From assembly GCA_943355005.1 (NCBI GenBank), contig CALRDV010000002.1, forward strand, positions 64,397-128,396: a stretch of 64,000 nt of DNA, in the 5' to 3' direction. Below the pieces are notes generated by a model, which was given only the letters and a program-made list of their open reading frames with translations, was not told where the DNA came from and did no database searches. The position numbers were made by a program, and so were the translations under genes. Source of the DNA: Patescibacteria group bacterium. GTDB taxonomy: Bacteria; Patescibacteriota; Microgenomatia; UBA1400; MFAQ01. Every line of letters starts with the position of its first letter. Positions within the stretch are counted from its first letter, which is position 1. Below are positions 12,891 to 64,000 of the stretch, piece after piece.

Positions 12891-12892
12891 AG

Positions 12893-12966
12893 TAGCTGGG
12901 GCGAGATTCGAACTCGCGGTCTTCGGTTTATGAATCCGATGCTTTAACCAACTAAGCTACCCAGCC
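12893..12966 (-). tRNA. tRNA-Met (anticodon CAU), elongator-like; no encoded CCA
   Basis: Minus-strand cloverleaf GGCTGGGTAGCTTAGTTGGTTAAAGCATCGGATTCATAAACCGAAGACCGCGAGTTCGAATCTCGCCCCAGCTA. T-loop GTTCGAATC, D-loop with GG, anticodon loop TTCATAA. Resembles elongator tRNA-Met; lysidine-type Ile cannot be excluded. Confidence 0.8.
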
Positions 12967-15504: not shown

Positions 15505-15508
15505 TAAG

Positions 15509-15582
15509 TGGGTCGAGTAGGATTCGAACCTACGACATCGAAGGTATAAGCTTCGCGCTCTAACCAGCTGAGCTATCGACCC
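15509..15582 (-). tRNA. tRNA-Ile (anticodon UAU); no encoded CCA
   Basis: Minus-strand cloverleaf GGGTCGATAGCTCAGCTGGTTAGAGCGCGAAGCTTATACCTTCGATGTCGTAGGTTCGAATCCTACTCGACCCA. Anticodon stem CGAAG/CTTCG, loop CTTATAC. Confidence 0.8.
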
Positions 15583-15638: not shown

Positions 15639-17960
15639 TTAAAGATTAGACCTTTTCTCAATTTCTTCAGATACTTCCGTTACATCCCGTCCAAACTTTA
15701 GTCTAGACAATTCTTTCACCATTCTGGAAATTTCCGGACTTCCCTGAGCTTTCTCTGCTTTTAAGTCGCGTCCAACGTTCATTGAAAAAGGAGGTACCGG
15801 TGTCCCGTTTACGATTGTTTTCACATAAATATTTTGTGCCGGGATATTGGACAAATCAGCTTCGTTAAAAACCCCCTCGAACTCTTTTGATAAGATTGCC
15901 GCATCCTGAACTCCCACCCGATAGGTCATTAGTGTTCCACAGTTGCCAAAGATAGCGTCTCTCACTTGCTCATCAATCTGGCTCACAAATTGGTTAGCCA
16001 AGATAAGGCCAATTCCATATTTACGCACCTCGGAAAGCATCTGGGCAAAATCGGGTGTCGCAAAGTTCTGAAACTCATCAACATACAAATAGAAAGGCCT
16101 TCTTTGCTCCTTAGGTACTTCCTGACGGGAAAGCGCGGCAGCTAAAATCTTAGGTACCAAAACATTCCCCAAGAAGTTCGAGTCTTCTTCTCCGAGTAGT
16201 CCTTTGGCCAATTTTAGAAACACTATTTTACCCTCATCCATCGCCGTTCTAAAATTCAACGCACTGTGAGACTGACCTATGATATTTCGAATCATTTCGT
16301 TCGTCACAAATCGCCCAAATTTTGAAGCAATGTAATCTAATGTTTCAGATTTGTGGAAGTCACTTGTTTGAGCAATTTGATCGGTCCAGTACCTTTTTAC
16401 AATTGGATCCTTCACCAAAGGCAATATCTCTTGAACGTATTTCTGATCTGTCAGAGCTCTGTTAACCTCCACAAAAGTTGCTCCCGGCACCATTGCCACT
16501 GTCAGCATAGCGTTTCGGATAGCATGCTCAAATCTTGGACCCACCATACCGGTACGGTGTGGATCATAGAGCTTATACATTAGATTGATAATAGAGGAAG
16601 CCACAATATGCATCTCATCATAGTTCGCCACCTCAAGTAGATTTAGACCCACCGGTCTACTTTTATCTGACGGATCGAAGAGAATCACGTCTTCAGCTCT
16701 CTCTGGTGGCACCAGTTCAAGCAACTCCTCAATACCATCACCATGTGGCTCCATAAAGCAGAGACCTTTCCCTGACCTCATATCTTGAAGAATCATAGAT
16801 TTTAGAAGTTCTGTTTTCCCTGTACCTGTTCTACCGATTATGTACAAATGTTTCATTCTGTCCGTCTCCCCCATAAAGATATTTCTTTCTTGTCCTCTAT
16901 AGACAGACCTACCAAGCCACAAACCGGAATCCGGGAACTCACCTGAAGCTGGAGCTGTCTTTGCCGTCAGCCAATATATATGTGGGGTTTCAATTGTCTT
17001 ATTTGGTAAGTGCCAAACCGTAGCCAATTCATCTACCGACAAGATTGAATTCAATCCCCATAGATTCTGATATCTATATATAAAGTCGAGCATGAAGGAT
17101 TGTTTAAACCTTATCTTGCTACCCGAAAAAGAATTCTGGTTGCTGGCAAATTGTGAGAAAGTTCCTTTTAGGTTGCTTAAATTTGCTTTCGCCTGTTCCA
17201 AAGCAGGAGCCACACTTATTATCCTAATACTGGTAAGGTATCCCACTTTCGAACACTTATTTGTAATTGCTTCCATATCTTGCGGGTTCATCTTGAACTT
17301 TGCTTTCTCAGGATCCGCTTCATCTTTCTTTAATTTTGAAATATATCCCAAACCGGACTTGCTCCACTCAGACTCGGCAGGAGAGATGATTATTTGAATC
17401 GCAGCAGCTTCATTATCATTAAACTTAGCCATGGCAGATGTGATAGAAGATAATGAATCTACCGGCAACTCTTTAAATCCCTTAATTGGCTTGAAACTCT
17501 CTCCTTTTAAAGTAAGCTCAGCGAAATCTATCTTGGCATCCTTATAAAAGATATTGTATTCATCCACCTGCTTCACATGTGTCCCCGGGTATGTTCCTGA
17601 TATCATCTTTTCCACCAGCTCGGCATTTTTCTTATGGCAGGAAACGTAAAATCTTATATCTTCCTTTTTTCCTACAATTTCTAAAGATAAGTGTTGTTGA
17701 GATTCAAACTTTTGCCAAAAACCACCTTTCTTCATAGAGAATAAAGCAGCAAACATCTGTTCCACTGCATCTATTTTTACTTCATTGTCTCTAGGCACCG
17801 CAATTTCCATCAATACGAAATTTAAGCTCACATCTTCCCTGTTTCTGTTCTTTACCCAAATCACAAACAGCATCCAAAACATTATTATTGTGGCAGTCAA
17901 GAAGGCTATGCCCAGAAAAACTACAAATATGTATTGAATCCAAAAATTTAGATCTATCAT
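15639..17960 (-). CDS. VirD4/TraD/TrwB-like coupling-protein ATPase (FtsK-HerA superfamily) with N-terminal TM anchor
   Basis: N-terminal TM helices, Walker A GRTGTGKT, Walker B LYVDEFQNF, about 770 aa. Confidence 0.5.
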   Translation of the reverse strand: MIDLNFWIQYIFVVFLGIAFLTATIIMFWMLFVIWVKNRNREDVSLNFVLMEIAVPRDNEVKIDAVEQMFAALFSMKKGGFWQKFESQQHLSLEIVGKKEDIRFYVSCHKKNAELVEKMISGTYPGTHVKQVDEYNIFYKDAKIDFAELTLKGESFKPIKGFKELPVDSLSSITSAMAKFNDNEAAAIQIIISPAESEWSKSGLGYISKLKKDEADPEKAKFKMNPQDMEAITNKCSKVGYLTSIRIISVAPALEQAKANLSNLKGTFSQFASNQNSFSGSKIRFKQSFMLDFIYRYQNLWGLNSILSVDELATVWHLPNKTIETPHIYWLTAKTAPASGEFPDSGLWLGRSVYRGQERNIFMGETDRMKHLYIIGRTGTGKTELLKSMILQDMRSGKGLCFMEPHGDGIEELLELVPPERAEDVILFDPSDKSRPVGLNLLEVANYDEMHIVASSIINLMYKLYDPHRTGMVGPRFEHAIRNAMLTVAMVPGATFVEVNRALTDQKYVQEILPLVKDPIVKRYWTDQIAQTSDFHKSETLDYIASKFGRFVTNEMIRNIIGQSHSALNFRTAMDEGKIVFLKLAKGLLGEEDSNFLGNVLVPKILAAALSRQEVPKEQRRPFYLYVDEFQNFATPDFAQMLSEVRKYGIGLILANQFVSQIDEQVRDAIFGNCGTLMTYRVGVQDAAILSKEFEGVFNEADLSNIPAQNIYVKTIVNGTPVPPFSMNVGRDLKAEKAQGSPEISRMVKELSRLKFGRDVTEVSEEIEKRSNL

Positions 17961-55515: not shown

Positions 55516-56127
55516 CTACAAGTATTTTGCAAACCACGCAATAGTTAATTCAGATATTTTTTCCATCCCCACAGGGACTATTTCCATCTTTTTTACACAT
55601 CCCATCTTTTGATATGCTTGCTTATTGAAATCAATCAGCTGTTTATCCTCTCCCCCAACAATAAAAAGCGAAGGAGCCTCGATTAAATCCAATACCTCCA
55701 TCGCCAAATCCGGCCTACCACCCTTGGAGACCAAAGCCTTAATCTTGGTCCCCCAATATGCAGCTGAAGATAGTGCCGCAGTAGAGCCGATACCGGCGCC
55801 ATAATACCCCAATTTCAAACTCTTTGTCTTGTCATTTTCCAAACACCACTTGCTTACTGCAATCAATCTCTCCGTCATTATCTCAATATTAAATCTGTTT
55901 TCAGACTTTTTAGCTTCCCCTTCGGTTAACAAATCAAACAACAGAGTTCCTACCCCTGCACTCCGAAGGTCTTTTGCCACCCTAAAGGTTTTATCGGACA
56001 ATCTTCCATCCCCCAACTCGTGGGCAAACACCACCATCGACTCTGATTTTCCAGGCAAATCAAGAACCCCTTTGAGAATAATATTCTGAACTGAAATTTC
56101 CACATCCATCTTCCTTAAATATAACAA
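55516..56127 (-). CDS. Alpha/beta hydrolase of the dienelactone-hydrolase-like family
   Basis: Nucleophile elbow GxGxG region (GYYGAGIGS) and DLH-like size. Confidence 0.45.
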   Translation of the reverse strand: MLYLRKMDVEISVQNIILKGVLDLPGKSESMVVFAHELGDGRLSDKTFRVAKDLRSAGVGTLLFDLLTEGEAKKSENRFNIEIMTERLIAVSKWCLENDKTKSLKLGYYGAGIGSTAALSSAAYWGTKIKALVSKGGRPDLAMEVLDLIEAPSLFIVGGEDKQLIDFNKQAYQKMGCVKKMEIVPVGMEKISELTIAWFAKYL

Positions 56128-56215
56128 ATCTTACATCCCAAACTCAATAGCCAGATTATTCCCAAAAAAAATGCCCCAATAAAAATTGGGGCAAATACCA
56201 TAAACATTAACTGAG

Positions 56216-57019
56216 CTACACTGAGAATCCACCAACCTGGGCTTGAGAAAAACCGGGAGCACCCTGAGAAGCTGTCGTGGCGACAGTCGAGAAAGTTCCA
56301 AAGCCGCGCCGGATATCAGTCCCGGAAGCATCGGTCTTGAGAATGCACTGTTCGAGAACTCCCATCCGCAAGAAAATATCGCGGAAGTCGGTTCCCAGGT
56401 CATCCTGAATACCCATGGCGCAGACAATATGCTGCTCGCCGGAAAGAAAATCTTTCGTCAATGGAGCCACTGACTCAGGAGTCATATAGAGAGAACTTCC
56501 CTCGTCATGACCATCACAAACCAGTAATGTTGCTGAACGGACCGGAGTACCACGATCGGAGAATTCCTGAGTCTTTTTTACCAGGTCACCATAACTGATG
56601 ACGGTGGTATCGTAGAAAGGAGTTCCACCATTCGCTCGGTAATTTGTCGAATCCAGTAGTGGCACGTCGTCAATCGGAGTGAAGGGAATCACCACCCCGG
56701 CATTCAAAAAGCGCACGCACATCAGAATTGACTTGTGGTTTTTTGCACCCTTCAAATCAGCACGGACCTTGTTCACACCATCACGGATCGCTTGCTCGTT
56801 CCCCGCACGTCGGATCGAAGTTGAATCATCAACCACGATTTCAACTGCGAAGATTTCCGAACCGCCTTTTACGTCAATCGCGGGCACACCCATCGCCTGA
56901 TTTATCTGAGCAGATACATCAGGGATCGTGAAAGCTTTATGGCTGGCAGCAGAGATTACTCCCTCTGCCCGAGCATTATCAAACAGATCATTCGAATTTG
57001 CAGCACTTGAATTTGTCAT
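56216..57019 (-). CDS. von Willebrand factor A (vWA) domain protein, TerY-like
   Basis: MIDAS residues: DDSTS (DxSxS), GGTP threonine, and an LVCDGHDEG aspartate. Notably GC-richer than its surroundings. Confidence 0.65.
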   Translation of the reverse strand: MTNSSAANSNDLFDNARAEGVISAASHKAFTIPDVSAQINQAMGVPAIDVKGGSEIFAVEIVVDDSTSIRRAGNEQAIRDGVNKVRADLKGAKNHKSILMCVRFLNAGVVIPFTPIDDVPLLDSTNYRANGGTPFYDTTVISYGDLVKKTQEFSDRGTPVRSATLLVCDGHDEGSSLYMTPESVAPLTKDFLSGEQHIVCAMGIQDDLGTDFRDIFLRMGVLEQCILKTDASGTDIRRGFGTFSTVATTASQGAPGFSQAQVGGFSV

Positions 57020-57063
57020 CGGAATCTCCTTATTTTTTGTCTTTTAGATCAACACTCGAAAAA

Positions 57064-58083
57064 TTAGATCGGGTCAGTCGAGCGAACGATATTCATACCT
57101 TCCTTAGCAAACTTGGCAAAAACTTCGTTCGTTTTGTCTGTATGATCCACAATTCCAGGAACCACCACAGGACTCATACAATCTTCCAACAGATACACTT
57201 TCTTTGCCATCGCAGGGTCGACCGCCTTGATTTCTTCCAGAAGGTCAGCGATTGTCCATGCCACACAGTGACTCTTCGCCTGTCCCGCAATATACAGCTT
57301 GTCTACCGACATCAACGCCTTAATGAATCTTGTGCTTTTTTGAGCAATCGGTTGCCCCATGGCAAACAAGATCTCTGGGCGCAAAGCCGAATAGCTTTCA
57401 TCCAGTGGATTTCCACCTTTTGTCTCTGGCTCAATATCGGTCTCACGAGCAATGCTATGAAAGAAAATTGCTTCATGGAAGGATGCAACCAGCGCATGTC
57501 CAATACCACCAAGCATTGCGTGGTAGGGCCAGACAGTCAAGCGGAATTTATTGGCTCTCTCCAGCTGAGTACAGTAGTCAAGTAAATATGACTGAAGCCA
57601 ATTATAGTCAACTCCAGGCACACGACCAACGACCGCCAAATTGACCATCCATTTCCCGGTACGAATATCATTAGAACTGATTTCAGTATACGGAGCAGGG
57701 TGCTTACCATTTTTGTCAACGAAAAACACCGGGTGAAAAATTTGTTGAGCAGTATGAGTATCCATCGTCGCAAAGATGCGATTTATCTTACGCAGATTGC
57801 GATAAATGAATTCTGTTAAACGCCGGGTATCGTCGATCGCGCCCGTTCCACTGCGTCCACCAACATAGAGCTCGAATTCAGGAATACAGAAAGTATTCTG
57901 AACATCGATTCCCATTAACCCAATCTTTACAGAATCTGTCGATGCGGGCTTAATGTCATACTGTTTTGCATACTTCTCAGCCGACACTTCCAATTCGGCA
58001 TACTTCGGTTCCCAAACTTGTCCAACTTTTCTTGCATCATAATGTGTAGGAATAGGCAGATTAGTCATTCTTTTCTCCTTCAT
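57064..58083 (-). CDS. Isochorismatase-family cysteine hydrolase with N-terminal extension
   Basis: GIDVQNTFC (catalytic Asp), ATMDTHT, and the catalytic Cys in YIAGQAKSHCVAWTIADL. Confidence 0.6.
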   Translation of the reverse strand: MKEKRMTNLPIPTHYDARKVGQVWEPKYAELEVSAEKYAKQYDIKPASTDSVKIGLMGIDVQNTFCIPEFELYVGGRSGTGAIDDTRRLTEFIYRNLRKINRIFATMDTHTAQQIFHPVFFVDKNGKHPAPYTEISSNDIRTGKWMVNLAVVGRVPGVDYNWLQSYLLDYCTQLERANKFRLTVWPYHAMLGGIGHALVASFHEAIFFHSIARETDIEPETKGGNPLDESYSALRPEILFAMGQPIAQKSTRFIKALMSVDKLYIAGQAKSHCVAWTIADLLEEIKAVDPAMAKKVYLLEDCMSPVVVPGIVDHTDKTNEVFAKFAKEGMNIVRSTDPI

Positions 58084-58086
58084 TTT

Positions 58087-59958
58087 CTAACGGATTGTCA
58101 AACTCAGTACTTCTTTCTTGCGAATTACATAGATCCCTTTAGAACTTGGCAACAAGAACGAATTCTCGTCGACATATGGTTCTGTATCGGGAAATTCCTT
58201 TGTCTGAACAATTCTGCCGTTTACGATTTCGGCACGAACTATCCCGTCATTGGTAGCATTCAAGATAAAGTCACCTATTGGCAGCTTACCTCGAATTTTT
58301 CCTAACCAGGAACCATCCCCATTTTCACACTCCTCAGTGGCCTCAATTTCCCCCAGTGAGTTAATCACCTGAACTCTGTTGATGATCTTGGAGCCACTCT
58401 TTTCCGTAGTCATAAACCATGCATGAGTACCGGCGAACACACAAGTCGAATCGATCAATTGTCCTTTAACGGGAACAATCTTTACAGAATCGTTAATACC
58501 GGACCTATTAGCGTCAAACACAAAAGCGCGAGTCAAATTATCAGCCCGGTAAAAACCAAAGCCAAATTTTTCACCCACCCAAAAAAGCGTCTGACCTTCA
58601 AGAACACTTCCGATGATCTCGGGACCTAAAGATTCATCACGATAGAGAAAACCACCGCTAGACCAGTAGTAATGTTTAGAATTAGCGTCGATGGTCGGTA
58701 AGTTCCCAAAGGAATCCACCGCAATCTTCTCAGCCGCTTTTCCGTTTTCCAAGACTACCATCAGTCCATTTTTAGCCACTATCGTCTTGTTTGCCTGTAT
58801 CCGATACCTCATACCCACATCCAAGCCACCTTCCAAACTTACTGCTCCATCTTCACGAAGAAACCGACCATTTTCGTTATAGAGGTATTTCAACTCTCCT
58901 TTTTGCACTGTTGCGTATACTATCAAACCTCCTGTTTGAAAAGCAAAATCTACCCGGACGTTTCCTCTGATCTGGGTTACCTTCTGAGCTGCCACTCCGG
59001 CAGAACAATTAGGGCAGATACTTCGAGCATGCTCATAACCACAGTTCAGACATTTTCCAAACCTAATCTGCAAAAGCTTTGTCGGGAACTCTCCTCTTTC
59101 TCCTTTTTCAAAGGTTTTAAAAAAGAAATCCAATAAATCATCCGGCAGAATATGCATTGGGGTCGCCGGTTTTGGATAAACCACTTCAGGGTTAAAAATA
59201 CTTATTCCCCGGAGAGGTCTTGCATCCAGTGTCACCAAGTTTTTTCTATCTTTCGGCTTATAAACTCCTCCCCACGGACGCACATACAATAGTGCTTCCA
59301 TGAGCATAACGACATAGGCGTACCAATCAGACAAGTCATCGTGAGGCTTGATCATCTTCAGAGACTTCTGTTTAGGATCACAATGCTTCGGATCTACATA
59401 AGCAGCCGTAAACATTGGACTCAAATATTTACTATTCCCCATACTGTCAGCATCACACAATTTTGCCTTTGCTTGCTTGATTAACACATTAAGACTATTA
59501 AAATCAGAAATTACTACTCCGGCTTCATGGGTCTGTTTCACCGTGGGGTGTAGATCGGCAAAGATCTGCATCATCACATTGTTTCCAATACCACCGACTT
59601 CACGAAAGTCCCTATCAAGATACTGCATCAAAGTTTCATAACCTTTCAAGTACTCCATTTCATAACCCAATATTTTTCTCCCGGACAAGTCCGTAAGAAG
59701 ATCTAGGGGCACCACCACACTTGATGGCAACATGGCAAAAGGAAACTCTCGAAGTTTCGTTTGATGCATAATAATTCTTTTTTCTGCTTCTTTTTGTTGA
59801 TCCGGAAACATATCAAAATCAGGATCGTTTCTTTCCTTAAAGATTTTCCCTACCCTGGAAGGGCTAGTTTCGTAAATATATGCTTCCCCGCCTTTCCCTC
59901 TCAACTTACTGGGATCCAAGGGAACTCTTTCTCCATTTCTATAAGCAACTCTATGCAT
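58087..59958 (-). CDS. Protein-kinase-like (Ser/Thr kinase fold) protein with internal zinc ribbon and C-terminal beta-rich domain
   Basis: Gly-rich loop GKGGEAYIYE and VGKIFK lysine; catalytic-loop-like VISDFNSLNVLI (D...N); DADSMG (DFG-like); CLNCGYEHARSICPNC ribbon. Confidence 0.5.
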   Translation of the reverse strand: MHRVAYRNGERVPLDPSKLRGKGGEAYIYETSPSRVGKIFKERNDPDFDMFPDQQKEAEKRIIMHQTKLREFPFAMLPSSVVVPLDLLTDLSGRKILGYEMEYLKGYETLMQYLDRDFREVGGIGNNVMMQIFADLHPTVKQTHEAGVVISDFNSLNVLIKQAKAKLCDADSMGNSKYLSPMFTAAYVDPKHCDPKQKSLKMIKPHDDLSDWYAYVVMLMEALLYVRPWGGVYKPKDRKNLVTLDARPLRGISIFNPEVVYPKPATPMHILPDDLLDFFFKTFEKGERGEFPTKLLQIRFGKCLNCGYEHARSICPNCSAGVAAQKVTQIRGNVRVDFAFQTGGLIVYATVQKGELKYLYNENGRFLREDGAVSLEGGLDVGMRYRIQANKTIVAKNGLMVVLENGKAAEKIAVDSFGNLPTIDANSKHYYWSSGGFLYRDESLGPEIIGSVLEGQTLFWVGEKFGFGFYRADNLTRAFVFDANRSGINDSVKIVPVKGQLIDSTCVFAGTHAWFMTTEKSGSKIINRVQVINSLGEIEATEECENGDGSWLGKIRGKLPIGDFILNATNDGIVRAEIVNGRIVQTKEFPDTEPYVDENSFLLPSSKGIYVIRKKEVLSLTIR

Positions 59959-59970
59959 GGGGTCTCCTTT

Positions 59971-60840
59971 CTACAATCTACTAACGACCACCACAGCTAA
60001 ATCGTCCTTTAGAATCGCCGGTTGTGTTTCCATTTCGGACACAGCCCAATCAATTCTCTTTTTTTCGGTAGCTAACAAGTTTAGTCTCCACCCTAATGCT
60101 TCAGTGTTTTCAAAATACTCCTTGTTACTCCAAAAATCTTCAGGGCCACCCACGGGATTTCTTGTTCCGGGAACGATTTTTGTCGGATCTTTAAGAAACC
60201 ATTCAATCCCATCAGTAGCGATCATCGCTGATTGCACTGTTTTTGTGGAGACCGCATGCCGAACCCTCAGTCTCAAATCTTCTGTGGTCAATCTTTTCGA
60301 GGTCGTTCCAACCAAATTATACGCAAGACAAGGGGGCATATTATCAACATCTTTGGCAAACATTTCGTACATTTGACCATTTAAGAAATAATTTCCATCT
60401 CCTGTGCCGAAAAACAAAGTGATTTCGGGAGTTACTACCATTCCCACAATAGTAAACAAAAAATGTTTAATTATGGCTCTGGAATAACTTCCCCCCATTG
60501 CGTGTGAAGTAGACTCAATTAGGTTTAGAGTGTGCTTTTGAGTTTCCTCCCACAACTCTCTCCCCCTTAACATCGAATTCCACTTCCACTTTGGCGCACT
60601 TTCCAGACGGCCGGCAATATAGTTTGCAATGGCTGTAACACCAATTGTTGACCCAACTTCAGCGTGAAGAGAATCAATCGGGTCTCCCATTCCATCTCCT
60701 ACAACAGCGACCAATAAATCTTGTTTCTCAACCACAAGAAGTGCGTCTTGACAGTTTTTTTTGATCCTTACATGATCGGCGCCAATTACAATTCCCGAAG
60801 AAACTTTGATCTGATTCACAAAAACCTCCTTAACTCTCAA
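59971..60840 (-). CDS. PP2C-family Ser/Thr protein phosphatase
   Basis: VAVVGDGMGD (DGMGG-like metal-binding motif) plus other PP2C acidic residues. Confidence 0.65.
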   Translation of the reverse strand: MRVKEVFVNQIKVSSGIVIGADHVRIKKNCQDALLVVEKQDLLVAVVGDGMGDPIDSLHAEVGSTIGVTAIANYIAGRLESAPKWKWNSMLRGRELWEETQKHTLNLIESTSHAMGGSYSRAIIKHFLFTIVGMVVTPEITLFFGTGDGNYFLNGQMYEMFAKDVDNMPPCLAYNLVGTTSKRLTTEDLRLRVRHAVSTKTVQSAMIATDGIEWFLKDPTKIVPGTRNPVGGPEDFWSNKEYFENTEALGWRLNLLATEKKRIDWAVSEMETQPAILKDDLAVVVVSRL

Positions 60841-60907
60841 TTTTGTAGTTCAATTTTCAAGGAACCAAATACTTAGTGTATTTATGACACCATTATATAC
60901 CAAATCT

Positions 60908-60926
60908 TAGTGTTGTCAATACACTA
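60908..60926. promoter_or_regulatory. Operator-like palindrome TAGTGTT-GTCAA-TACACTA overlapping a TTGTCA(-35)-N17-TAAATA promoter upstream of 61075
   Basis: Inverted repeat seen directly. A weaker copy lies at 60866-60884 and a perfect copy at 61962-61980. Confidence 0.45.
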
Positions 60927-61074
60927 TTTTGAACCTAAATAAGGTTCATGCGCTCTATTATATAGACATTTCCCTCAAAATTACCCACTCGTAGGTAATT
61001 CGTACAGCAAGAACTTTTATAGGATATTTTTGCACCATTTTGACTTACCTGAACAAAACTTATAAAATACCCTC

Positions 61075-61635
61075 ATGAACAAAACGTCCCTGTTGATTAA
61101 ACCTACCATCCTTTCCATCACCTTTCTCCTTCTCACTTCCCCGGTATTTGCGGCCAATACAGACATTAAAGGCAAAAACCTTAAAAGTCTTCCGAAAATG
61201 GAAATCTCTGCCGTAAAAAATAAAATTTGCAAATCAAAAGAAGAAGATACCAAAACTCGCATGACTCAGCTTACGAAACTGGTAGCCTCCATGGAAACGG
61301 TTTTTGATCGAATCGCTGAAGGTGTCAAAAAATACTACACAGACAAGGTTCTTACTTCGGGGAAAACTGTGACTAACTACGACAAACTTGTCAAGGATAT
61401 TGCCGACAAAAAAGCACTTATTCAAACACAGCTTGACAAGGCAAAGTCAGATATCGGCAATTTAAATTGTGAGGATGGCACAGCTAAGAATACTACTGCT
61501 CAATTTCACACCAATATGAAAGCCGTCAAAGAAGGTCTAAAAAACTACAGAAAATCTGTCAATACTCTCATCGTCGCAGTCCACACTGTTGATAAAAACA
61601 TCAAAGTGTCACCCACCATTACTCCGGCCAATTAA
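61075..61635 (+). CDS. Secreted coiled-coil protein (hypothetical)
   Basis: Signal peptide (LLTSPVFAANT); K/E-rich helical repeats. Confidence 0.5.
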   Translation: MNKTSLLIKPTILSITFLLLTSPVFAANTDIKGKNLKSLPKMEISAVKNKICKSKEEDTKTRMTQLTKLVASMETVFDRIAEGVKKYYTDKVLTSGKTVTNYDKLVKDIADKKALIQTQLDKAKSDIGNLNCEDGTAKNTTAQFHTNMKAVKEGLKNYRKSVNTLIVAVHTVDKNIKVSPTITPAN

Positions 61636-61650
61636 TATCACTCAAAGTCC

Positions 61651-61905
61651 ATGCCCAAAACAAACCAAAATAGCAATAAAGAAACCAAATTATTTTTACT
61701 AATTGTCCTTCTAGTCCTGGTAGGCTACCTTTTTACTTCTAAGAAAAGTGAAACTGCCAAAACAACAGCACCCGCTCCACTATCTGCCGAAAACATTACC
61801 GACACCTCAAGTCTTGAAAACGCTCAAGACAAGCTTAACTCTGTCAACATCGATTCTTTAGACCTAGAACTAAACAAACTAAACTCAGACTCTTCTGCTT
61901 TTTAG
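61651..61905 (+). CDS. Small single-TM protein (hypothetical)
   Basis: 84 aa with an N-terminal TM helix (LFLLIVLLVLVGYLF). Confidence 0.4.
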   Translation: MPKTNQNSNKETKLFLLIVLLVLVGYLFTSKKSETAKTTAPAPLSAENITDTSSLENAQDKLNSVNIDSLDLELNKLNSDSSAF

Positions 61906-61961
61906 GTCGACTCTCAAAGCTTCCTCACCTGCACGAACTTCCTCTTGCGCTTGACAATACT

Positions 61962-61980
61962 TAGTGTAAGCTATACACTA
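61962..61980. promoter_or_regulatory. Operator-like perfect palindrome TAGTGTA-AGCTA-TACACTA within a TTGACA-N17-TACACT promoter upstream of 62009
   Basis: Perfect 7-bp inverted-repeat arms; the same half-sites occur at 60908. Confidence 0.5.
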
Positions 61981-62008
61981 CATTATGATAGTGTAATTAA
62001 TACACAAT

Positions 62009-62929
62009 ATGACAAAACCACTTAAAGCTGTTTACTGTTACTACTTTCCTGAAGTCAGAAAAATAATTGATGAAGCTACCTCCTCTTATCCTCACGAAAT
62101 TTTTCTCAAATCCGTCAATCCCGGTCTCGACGATTTTCACCATAAAGCTCTAGACGCCTACATCAAACACTTTAAATATGAACTTCCAGATCTTAATTCC
62201 TTCCCCTTCAAATATGTTTCAGGTGGAGCTAGTGAGAGTATCTTTCACCTCCTTTCTTATATCAAAGCAAACAGACCGGATACCCCACTTTATGTCCTAA
62301 AAGGTGAATACGAAGGTTATGCCGGCTATGGTTCGAACTTAGGCCTTAGATTTACCATAGTGAATGATCTGTTGGATTTACTCACCCTCCCCAAAGGCAT
62401 TCTCTTTCTATCAAACCCTTCAGCGCGGGACGGCAATATCATTCCCGACTCAGAAATTCTAAAAGTTGCTGATTCGGGCCAGCAAATAATTTACGATGCA
62501 ACTTATGTTGGCCTTACAGATCCTCACCGATTCGAGCTAGGTCACCCAAATATAATCGCCGTAATTGTTTCGCTTAGTAAACCTTTCGGTCTCTACTACT
62601 ATCGCATTGGCTTTACCTTTAGCAGGTTCGAGATAAAAACTCTTGAAGTTAACAAGTGGTTTAAAAATATCTTATCTCTCATCATCGCCGAAAAAGTATT
62701 AAACCAAATTGATTCAAAAAAACTTGTCAACCAGTACCGGGTTCTTCAAAAGAAAGCCGTCTCTCAAATGAATTCTGATTTAGGACTTGATGCCAAGCCA
62801 AGCCAAGTGGTTTTACTTGCTCATTCCAATCAAGAGTCAAACCCCTCAATGGAAATTTACAACCGAGGCAGCAACTATCGATTTTGCCTTACACCATATT
62901 ATTTAATCAAAGAAAGGGGTTATATCTAA
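62009..62929 (+). CDS. PLP-dependent aminotransferase-fold enzyme (class I/II, HisC/CobD-like), short form
   Basis: FLSNPSARDGNI matches the NPxNPTG substrate motif. SLSKPFGLYYYRIGF matches the SxSKxxGxxGxRxG PLP-lysine motif. Confidence 0.5.
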   Translation: MTKPLKAVYCYYFPEVRKIIDEATSSYPHEIFLKSVNPGLDDFHHKALDAYIKHFKYELPDLNSFPFKYVSGGASESIFHLLSYIKANRPDTPLYVLKGEYEGYAGYGSNLGLRFTIVNDLLDLLTLPKGILFLSNPSARDGNIIPDSEILKVADSGQQIIYDATYVGLTDPHRFELGHPNIIAVIVSLSKPFGLYYYRIGFTFSRFEIKTLEVNKWFKNILSLIIAEKVLNQIDSKKLVNQYRVLQKKAVSQMNSDLGLDAKPSQVVLLAHSNQESNPSMEIYNRGSNYRFCLTPYYLIKERGYI

Positions 62930-62930
62930 G

Positions 62931-63809
62931 ATGAGACAAGCTGAAAACTTTAGTATTATTGCCGGAACCGGGGCCTGCAATGCTTCTTGCCCATTCTGTG
63001 TTTCCAAAATGACAGGTATTAAGGCTCTTGGTTTACACCCCCAGCCGATAAATTGGCGCAACTTTGAAAAAGCAGCCCGGCTTGCCAAAGATTACTTTGT
63101 GGGCAGTGTCATGATTACCGGCAAAGGTGAACCCACTCTCTTCCCCGACCAAATCACTTCTTATCTTGAGCATTTGGAACCTTACAAGTTTCCCTTAATA
63201 GATTTACAAACCAATGGAATCAACTTAATCAGCCAAAAAAACCGTTACGAATCCTACCTAAAAAAGTGGTACGACCTTGGTCTTTCCTGGATTGCGATTT
63301 CTATTATTCATTATATTCCGGAGGAAAATCACAAAGTTTACAACCCATATGCCAAAGAGTATATCGATCTTCCCAAACTGGTAAAACACCTAAAAAGCTT
63401 TGGTTATTCTGTCCGATTCAGTGTCACTATGCACAAGGGCGCTATCGATACTCCTAGAAAAGTTTTGAAAATAATCGAATTTGCTAAATCTCTGGGGGTT
63501 GAACAGCTCACGCTCAGAAAAATTGCTAAGCCAACCGTGAGCGAAAACGACGATATTGGAAAATGGACCAAAAAACATTTTTTGTCTGAAACGAAACTAT
63601 ATTTAATCAAAGCATTTATAGAAAAAATAGGTCACAGACTTCTTACCACGGGCCACAATGCGGGTATCTACGATGTGAATGGTCAGAACGTCTGTCTTAC
63701 AAACGCCCTCACCATCGATGCCGACCCATCTCAAATTCGTCAACTCATTTTCTTTCCTGATGGTCGGATTAAATTTGACTGGCAATACTCTGGAGCCACT
63801 TTACTTTGA
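62931..63809 (+). CDS. Radical SAM enzyme (no SPASM/twitch domain)
   Basis: CNASCPFC (Cx3Cx2C) near the N-terminus and the GKGEPTL glycine-rich SAM motif. Translationally coupled to the PLP enzyme (stop and start 1 nt apart). Confidence 0.7.
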   Translation: MRQAENFSIIAGTGACNASCPFCVSKMTGIKALGLHPQPINWRNFEKAARLAKDYFVGSVMITGKGEPTLFPDQITSYLEHLEPYKFPLIDLQTNGINLISQKNRYESYLKKWYDLGLSWIAISIIHYIPEENHKVYNPYAKEYIDLPKLVKHLKSFGYSVRFSVTMHKGAIDTPRKVLKIIEFAKSLGVEQLTLRKIAKPTVSENDDIGKWTKKHFLSETKLYLIKAFIEKIGHRLLTTGHNAGIYDVNGQNVCLTNALTIDADPSQIRQLIFFPDGRIKFDWQYSGATLL

Positions 63810-64000
63810 TTCAGCCAAATCAGTTAAACACTTAACCGAACTTGTCACATTCCCTAGAGTAAAGATGCTAATTCCTCCAATGTTTAAGTCTGCCCTATTT
63901 TTCTCTGCCAACTCCTTCAGGAAATCATTCGGAGAAAATCCTGTTATCACCCCGGTCGCTAGCGAAGCCGCCAACTTTGGCTTAGATTTGAGAAAAGCAA
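63804..64000 (-). CDS. Partial CDS (N-terminus beyond window), hypothetical
   Basis: Open minus-strand frame ending at TAA (63801-63803), C-terminal sequence ...NIGGISIFTLGNVTSSVKCLTDLAESK. Convergent with the radical SAM gene. Confidence 0.3.

Follow-up and report, generated by a model that had tools for sequence, protein, structure and literature searches.

The enzymology of nicotinamide adenine dinucleotide (NAD) synthesis and salvage is usually considered completely mapped. Genes of these pathways form NrtR regulons, in which 21-bp palindromic operators with a GT-N7-AC core lie upstream of nadABC, pncAB, nadD/E and nrtR itself (Rodionov et al. 2008, PMC2330246). Phages carry small NAD-synthesis cassettes of three described types, NARP1 (Adps and Namat), NARP2 (nicotinamide to NAD+ via nicotinamide mononucleotide) and NARP3 (PnuC and NadR), none of which has a radical S-adenosylmethionine (SAM) enzyme. 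In DesII/DesI and BlsE/BlsH, a radical SAM enzyme and an aminotransferase form tailoring pairs that act on sugar nucleotides or nucleosides. Here we describe a gene pair in a 64,000-nucleotide stretch of the genome of a Patescibacteria group bacterium (contig CALRDV010000002.1, positions 64,397 to 128,396; hereafter the window), which encodes a pyridoxal 5'-phosphate (PLP)-dependent enzyme of the class-I aminotransferase fold, P, and a radical SAM enzyme, R. The analysis confirms that R and P are real, conserved and tightly coupled genes of uncharacterised enzymes, and the pair probably carries out an undescribed step of NAD metabolism.

A sequence-only reading of the region had proposed a pair of reading frames, and both are found at exactly the positions that it gave (Table 1). 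A single base separates the stop codon of P from the start codon of R, and this gap, together with an AAAGGGG run within the 3' end of P, reads as a classic translational-coupling layout. The motifs named in that reading are there as well: P carries N136-P-S-A-R-D-G142 and S188-L-S-K191-P-F-G-L-Y-Y-Y-R199-I-G201, and R carries C16-N-A-S-C20-P-F-C23 and G64-K-G-E-P-T-L70. Two of its negative statements also stand, that R lacks an auxiliary-cluster domain (the sole cysteine beyond the CX3CX2C motif is C255) and that neither protein can be placed in a characterised subfamily (best NCBIfam matches of 26-32 bits against cut-offs of 180-450 bits).

Co-occurrence in other genomes, which the same reading had proposed as a check, bears the pairing out. 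Among 84 genome loci, 80 of which represent one GTDB species each, R and P are adjacent and co-directional in 45, in either order, and the pairing is far beyond chance. Most paired loci have R followed by P, and the order P then R is seen solely in the window's own clade. In a neighbour-joining tree of R, the clades with and without P separate cleanly. One 666-aa open reading frame (ORF), P0300 (L171, 1730-3730), joins a full-length R at its N-terminus to P at its C-terminus, the two parts being 39% and 35% identical to the window proteins; it is known from one 3.75-kb Logan contig, where it lies beside a response regulator gene, and its support for R-P coupling is supportive rather than conclusive. 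R itself is duplicated in L080, L091 and L117, as R-P-R in an archaeal locus and as tandem R-R on two viral contigs. In an Anaerolineales locus (L048, 8439-14270), R and P lie in one operon between genes for radical SAM proteins of 485 aa (before R) and 262 aa (after P); genes for a 147-aa protein and a DUF3048 protein complete the operon, which thus has three radical SAM enzymes in all and is preceded by two NrtR-type operators.

R matches PF04055 with 36.1 bits (Pfam cut-off 29.5) and has the marks of the radical SAM superfamily, namely the CX3CX2C motif, a SAM motif of the GGE type and a partial TIM-barrel fold. The AlphaFold models of the two proteins are confident, with mean predicted local distance difference test (pLDDT) scores of 91.6 and 96.3. 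The cluster ligands are Cys16, Cys20 and Cys23, and the SAM motif is GKGEP with an invariant Lys65. In an alignment of 89 sequences there is no variation at the cluster cysteines, K65, Q93, N95, R162, N253 or R270, and almost none at T94, R196 and C255. There are 1456 database homologues, the named ones from candidate phyla radiation (CPR) bacteria and DPANN archaea. An exhaustive profile search of 1.84 billion representatives (E <= 1e-30) returned just 434 clusters at 50% identity, so the family is small and has sharp limits. Its best NCBIfam matches are to MoaA (32.2 bits; TIGR02666 cut-off 284), viperin (NF038283, 28.2 bits; cut-off 180) and Tes (27.8 bits), with cut-offs of 180-450 bits overall, and the PADLOC models for prokaryotic viperins (pVip) give 26.9 bits (PDLC02903) and 17.9 bits. 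R thus scores as neither a viperin nor a MoaA, lacking also the C-terminal second-cluster cysteines of the latter, and it does not qualify as QueE by model match and que-gene context. The closest folds are those of viperin, MoaA and GDGT-MAS, and single-sequence and profile searches of the PDB find MoaA at 27 bits and nothing nearer. In the profile alignment with MoaA, a TNG motif is common to both and Arg162 of R lies opposite MoaA Lys163, presumably a GTP-contacting residue; MoaA K69, R71 and the auxiliary cluster have no counterpart in R. R is therefore a member of the viperin/MoaA structural neighbourhood, yet a separate family. A BFVD search found generic phage radical SAM proteins only, and the JGI auto-annotation labels R 'MoaA'.

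P matches PF00155 with 26.1 bits (Pfam cut-off 19.7) and is a fold-type I (class I/II) PLP enzyme by its S-x-S-K lysine, Asp, Asn/Tyr, phosphate Arg and aminotransferase fold. The PLP site is invariant across 95 aligned sequences (N136, D163, Y166, S188, S190, the Schiff-base K191 and R199), as is Arg291 at the usual carboxylate- or phosphate-binding position. Named sequences among its 590 database homologues are again from CPR bacteria and DPANN archaea. P scores 28.7 bits against CobD (TIGR01140 cut-off 290.55) and 26.4 bits against HisC (TIGR01141 cut-off 276.55), its best NCBIfam matches, and neither his nor cobamide genes were found in the neighbourhoods. PDB searches of both kinds give HisC and CobD at 35-41 bits and nothing nearer, which places P in the HisC/CobD structural neighbourhood, yet in a separate family; the JGI label is 'histidinol-phosphate/aromatic aminotransferase/cobyric acid decarboxylase-like'. 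A role of P as a cysteine desulfurase for the R cluster is unlikely, since the window has its own SufS/SufB and the conserved Cys293 of P lies within an ordinary R-x-C-L structural motif. A search of GenBank phages was uninformative, giving only relatives of about 23% identity, in a 735-kb uncultured phage and in a Pelagibacter phage. In the latter, Mosig (MT647606.1, 50954-67709), an aminotransferase-like relative of P (23% identity) is within a few kb of, and in one block with, three genes annotated in the record as 'MoaA-like', another aminotransferase, a carbamoyltransferase and dioxygenase-like genes, and the block looks like a separate, sugar-modification-like phage tailoring cluster.

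The evidence that connects the pair with NAD comes from its neighbours, its operators and its viral copies. ORFs in the 84 loci were called by a greedy longest-ORF procedure and clustered, both crude steps, and recurrent clusters were named via Pfam from one representative each; NAD statistics are for 72 species loci, with NrtR, NadK, PncA/B, NadD/E, NadA/B/C, NadR and PnuC as the NAD genes. The titles of several metagenome-assembled genomes ('Pseudomonadales', 'Gammaproteobacteria') look unreliable, and no use was made of them. At least one NAD gene lies within six genes of R in 46 of these 72, and the fraction of NAD genes, with P set aside, is 0.51 at ±1, 0.38 at ±2 and 0.25 at ±3, falling to 0.02 or less from position 11 outward. 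The commonest neighbours are NrtR (NUDIX plus NrtR winged helix; 30 loci), NAD kinase (29 loci), NAPRT of the archaeal and classical types (25 loci plus others), nicotinamidase (22), NadD (16), NadA (15), NadE (14) and glutamine-dependent NadE (12); NadB, NadC, NadR, PnuC, ADP-ribosylglycohydrolase, Prs and nucleoside-2-deoxyribosyltransferase-like genes also recur. Families confirmed by Pfam are NUDIX with NrtR_WHD, NAD_kinase, Isochorismatase, NadA, NAD_synthase, NAPRTase, ADP_ribosyl_GH, NMN_transporter and NadR-like. Independent gene calls with precomputed Pfam matches give the order Nudix-PncB-PncA-x-R-P-NadE-NadC-IUNH-Nudix-NadB-NadK-like-NadD, with overlapping genes, in one locus (L088), and PncB-like-x-NadE-R-P-NadM/Nudix-x-NrtR in another (L086). 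By comparison, his, cob, moa and que genes are absent from the roughly 130 neighbourhoods.

The NAD link runs through almost all clades of the R tree, those with P and those without. It includes DPANN clades of both kinds, Parcubacteria and Planctomycetota, a Saccharibacteria clade (NadE-NrtR-R-PncA-NAPRT-Ndt/Nudix-NadA-NadD) and an Obscuribacterales clade (NadK-R). In the window's own clade, four relatives (L006-L009) have NadA, NadB, NadC or NrtR beside P-R, and nrtR is directly upstream of the pair in two of them (L008 and L009). The exceptions are the Collierbacteria/Woesebacteria, in which R-P is inserted in the rpoBC-str region, the window itself and its closest relative, L005. With R and NadA found together in 12 loci, the idea that R takes the place of NadA was rejected. 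In Parcubacteria, a DAO/Mqo-type FAD oxidoreductase may be a NadB substitute: it lies beside NadA/NadC where NadB would be expected in one locus (L082, 2706-4076) and beside NadK and R in another (L064, 789-2180), with an NrtR-type operator upstream in both. In four Collierbacteria/Woesebacteria loci a trimethylamine methyltransferase-like gene of the MttB family is divergent from R-P (L002, 6400-7857, and L010, L011 and L017), and in L002, L010 and L011 it has in common with R-P the intergenic region in which the NrtR-type operator lies. We did not adopt this methyltransferase as a partner (the trigonelline idea), as it occurs in just these four loci of one clade.

Two operators precede P in the window, the second a direct repeat of the first at 27-nt spacing, and both fit the published NrtR signature of a GT-N7-AC core in a 21-bp palindrome (PMC2330246). 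The first overlaps the predicted promoter of the pair, lying between its TTGACA and TACACT elements. The window has eight matches to the operator with up to three mismatches, against 1.75 expected, and the four best cluster at two promoters, that of the pair and that of a nearby leftward operon with phosphatase and kinase genes (Table 1). Across 1.29 Mb of genome loci, TAGTGTA-N5-TACACTA with up to two mismatches occurs 87 times, compared with 3-8 times in block shuffles. With few exceptions, these copies fall between genes and upstream of R, P, PncB/NAPRT, NadA, NadC, NadK, NadE, PncA or nrtR. In 17 loci, including the Collierbacteria clade without NAD neighbours, the motif begins 18-24 nt ahead of the R or P start codon. 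Because NrtR-type operators lie upstream of R/P, of NAD genes and of nrtR, R-P is predicted to be an NrtR regulon member in most lineages, the window included. No riboswitch or other RNA was found in 60700-64000, and a 197/212-aa protein encoded downstream was rejected as a candidate regulator, being a secreted protein with a spurious weak BLAST match.

R is also carried by large phages. Full-length R, with 33-50% identity, is found on 46 IMG/VR contigs of 13-461 kb, viral by IMG/VR's assignment, and P on none of them. R was recovered as an ORF on 42 of the 46, and in 12 of these 42 it is adjoined by NAD genes (NAPRT/PncA/NadD/NadE). Four contigs (L098 and L101-103) have R-NAPRT-NadD-NadE with overlapping genes, and others have NAPRT-NadE-R-PncA (L100), PncB-PncA-R-NadM (L094) or R-x-NAPRT-NadE-NadD (L127); NAPRT is the commonest Pfam family within two genes of viral R on either side. 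Viral R is flanked by genes for RtcB, tRNA nucleotidyltransferase, RNA ligase, ThyX and a sigma factor, in keeping with auxiliary regions of jumbo phages. As expected for phage, the R-carrying viral contigs lack the NrtR motif.

Such pairs had been said to occur in the biosynthesis of modified nucleosides, cofactors or peptides; the cofactor NAD is the option selected here, because the genes around the pair, the NrtR-type operators and the NAD cassettes of phages all point to it. On balance we favour a module of two enzymes within the NAD (NrtR) regulon, in which R acts on an NAD-pathway nucleotide or ADP-ribose and P adds a PLP-dependent step. A fuller version is offered more tentatively, at a little under even confidence: that R, with P where present, provides an oxygen-independent radical route into the pyridine nucleotide pool, or recycles or repairs NAD or ADP-ribose, under NrtR control in CPR bacteria, DPANN archaea and some other anaerobes, and has been borrowed by jumbo phages in a fourth type of NAD-reconstitution cassette (R-NAPRT-NadD-NadE). 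If the regulator works as characterised NrtR repressors do, the pair would be induced along with NAD synthesis and salvage genes while NAD is consumed. R would cleave SAM to a 5'-deoxyadenosyl radical that abstracts hydrogen from an anionic, probably phosphorylated substrate, with the nearly invariant Cys255 as a candidate hydrogen donor; our best guess for this substrate is a pyridine or adenine nucleotide of the NAD pathway, or ADP-ribose. P is most like class-I PLP enzymes with phospho-substrates (HisC, CobD), and it could act on the product of R, for example by transaminating a keto intermediate, or supply the substrate. The two probably operate as a complex.

Several observations weigh against this interpretation. 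In the window the pair has no canonical NAD gene beside it, nrtR was found neither there nor in the adjoining 7 kb, and we infer the function of the operators from their sequence. About one-third of the genome loci and most viral loci have no NAD neighbour, and in Chloroflexi, Acidobacteria and Planctomycetes the context is heterogeneous, with extra radical SAM genes, amidohydrolase and patatin. Half of the loci, and every viral one, are without P, and the fusion P0300, on its single contig, could be the product of a frameshift error. R is found equally with de novo (NadABC), Preiss-Handler (PncAB) and riboside-salvage (PnuC/NadR) genes and with NadK, so that no single missing NAD step is indicated. 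Finally, GDGT-MAS, one of the two top fold matches of R, acts on lipids rather than nucleotides.

The main rival, which we think unlikely, places the pair at the entry to the pathway: R, assisted by P with an amino acid (for example aspartate) as the substrate of P, would make or liberate iminoaspartate, quinolinate or nicotinate for NadA or NAPRT without oxygen, either as the radical SAM equivalent of NadB, a flavin oxidase, or as a salvage lyase. Analogies exist in ThiH, which replaces ThiO in thiamin synthesis, and in the radical SAM queuine lyase, a salvage lyase. Most hosts belong to anaerobic CPR and DPANN lineages, NadB was not seen nearby in 9 of 12 NadA-containing loci, and P retains Arg291, a binder of alpha-carboxylate or phosphate. 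Were R to deliver nicotinate, the R-NAPRT-NadD-NadE cassette of phages would make up a whole pathway, although these cassettes are without NadA and P. R also occurs together with NadB in five loci and in purely salvage clusters without NadA, and no single radical SAM enzyme is known to form a pyridine ring. Genes of biosynthesis, salvage and uptake make up most of the NrtR regulons, as this alternative would have it (PMC2330246).

Three further readings are weak. The tight R-P coupling, the P0300 fusion and the complete PLP site of P would suit a radical SAM/PLP aminomutase of two subunits or another enzyme that modifies amino acids, like lysine 2,3-aminomutase, whose product lies outside NAD metabolism and which is co-regulated only; this is improbable given that half of the R genes, and all viral ones, are without P, that R has no PLP-binding region of its own and that R keeps company with NAD genes whether P is there or not. 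We give slightly less credence to the antiviral nucleotide-modifying system raised in the sequence-only reading, in which R would make a chain-terminating nucleotide as viperin does, P would modify it further and the proximity of NAD genes would be incidental. R resembles viperins in size and in having no auxiliary cluster, and the pVip matches noted above exist, but these scores (27-28 bits) fall far under the 180-bit cut-off and MoaA and GDGT-MAS score equally well or better. Moreover, R lies within housekeeping NAD operons of overlapping genes, behind NAD-regulator operators, recurrent defence genes or defence islands were not found beside it in genome and viral neighbourhoods, and large phages themselves carry it; the antiviral proposal is not supported. 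Least credible are ordinary but divergent housekeeping genes, HisC or CobD with MoaA or QueE, an outcome that reading had allowed for in the form of QueE and of HisC with a his operon. The top NCBIfam matches and the JGI labels agree with it, yet scores of 26-32 bits stand against cut-offs of 276-290, R has no MoaA C-terminal cluster cysteines, the neighbourhoods are devoid of the expected partner genes and the R family is discrete.

Around the pair, whose nearest named homologues are in CPR bacteria, the window encodes penicillin-binding proteins, FtsH, SufB/SufS, an ATP-dependent DNA ligase and a TraG-like protein. A kinase/PP2C block and two small exported proteins lie upstream, as previously described, and the description of the region as accessory-looking is fair for the window, but by prediction two operators (61962-62007) tie the pair to the NAD regulon. 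The exported proteins are not conserved beside the pair in other genomes, and the idea of a maturase of ribosomally synthesised and post-translationally modified peptides with these as precursors was rejected for that reason. The finding of a signalling operon, that of the PP2C phosphatase and kinase, within a predicted NAD regulon is unexpected; its operator arrangement recurs in the closest relative, L005. Its 339-aa hydrolase has no Pfam match, and its DxQNxF, D-x-H and G..A...CV motifs align with a PncA profile, which makes it a possible, tentative NAD link inside the window. Elsewhere, genes for tRNA-Met(CAT) (12892-12966) and for a tRNA-Ile with an unusual TAT anticodon (15508-15582) lie near a TrwB/TraG-type coupling protein gene (15639-17960) and may mark an integrated conjugative element. 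GC skew on the plus strand is strongly negative in every 2-kb bin of the window (1-64000; -0.13 to -0.40), regardless of the coding strand.

Table 1. Features of the R-P region, in window coordinates; a point marks features without a strand.
Feature	Position	Strand	Remarks
P gene	62009..62929	+	306 aa; ATG start, TAA stop at 62927-62929; ORF call
R gene	62931..63809	+	292 aa; ATG at 62931; ORF call
Shine-Dalgarno-like AAAGGGG	62913-62919	+	Within P 3' end, 11 nt 5' of R ATG; direct reading of the sequence
Operator 1, TAGTGTAAGCTATACACTA	61962..61980	.	Perfect palindrome; arms TAGTGTA and TACACTA (7 nt, 100% complementary) around AGCTA; GT-N7-AC core
Operator 2, TAGTGTAATTAATACACAA	61989..62007	.	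Arms TAGTGTA and TACACAA around ATTAA; 1 mismatch; ends 1 nt before P ATG
Predicted sigma-70-like promoter of the pair, TTGACA-17 nt-TACACT	61951..61979	+	10/12 consensus matches; consensus match only
Further operator copy	60874-60892	.	2 mismatches; motif match
Further operator copy	60908-60926	.	1 mismatch; motif match
Predicted promoter, TTGACA-16-TATAAT	overlaps 60874-60926 operators	-	Perfect consensus; heads PP2C/kinase/isochorismatase-like operon
PP2C/kinase operon	55516-60926	-	Members include 267-aa and 203-aa proteins of no recognised family
PP2C phosphatase	59971-60840	-	
Protein-kinase-like gene	58087-59958	-	623 aa
Divergent isochorismatase/nicotinamidase-like hydrolase	57064..58083	-	339 aa; 29 bits against PncA profile built from related loci
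Divergent MTHFR-like gene	63801-64000, on into L001 10871-11740	-	PF02219, 34 bits; converges on R, 9-nt overlap with R 3' end

A sharply defined enzyme family in the NAD operons, and behind the NrtR-type operators, of CPR bacteria and DPANN archaea, and in large phages, points to a missing reaction. If the favoured interpretation is right, there is a new enzyme, and perhaps a new metabolite, in a central cofactor pathway, which would help to explain the upkeep of the NAD pool in ultra-small symbionts and possibly add another phage counter-measure against NAD-depleting bacterial immunity. The question is directly testable, as candidate substrates are few and commercially available. R and P belong to known superfamilies and are not a new kind of system; what is new is an unassigned pair of enzymes in an NAD pathway thought to be complete. 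Full-text literature searches found neither a radical SAM enzyme nor this PLP family tied to NrtR, NAD operons or phage NAD cassettes.

Among described systems, viperin (RSAD2) and the prokaryotic viperins share 15% identity with R, which differs from them in the lysine inserted in the GGE motif (GKGEP), in Cys255, in its NAD-operon context and in its PLP partner. From MoaA, the GTP 3',8-cyclase, R differs in having no C-terminal cysteines for an auxiliary [4Fe-4S] cluster, in not conserving Lys69 and Arg71 and in having no molybdopterin genes nearby. The DesII/DesI and BlsE/BlsH pairs share the combination of enzymes, but P is a HisC/CobD-like class I enzyme and not a sugar aminotransferase of the DegT/DnrJ type, and R-P is set in primary NAD metabolism rather than with glycosyltransferases or in an antibiotic cluster. 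A precedent for a PLP enzyme with an NAD substrate, as a lead only, is SbzP of the altemicidin pathway, which uses beta-NAD and SAM and is annotated as aminotransferase-type (PMC13518217); unlike P it has 523 aa and belongs to secondary-metabolite clusters, and no specific similarity between the two was detected. With the described NrtR regulons (PMC2330246), R-P shares the palindromic operators and nrtR genes within the same clusters; radical SAM and HisC-like PLP members were not found for these regulons in the searched literature, and the regulon here extends to CPR bacteria and DPANN archaea. The viral loci in which R adjoins NAD genes have, like NARP1-3, small phage-borne NAD-synthesis cassettes, and R-NAPRT-NadD-NadE looks like a further cassette of the Preiss-Handler type.

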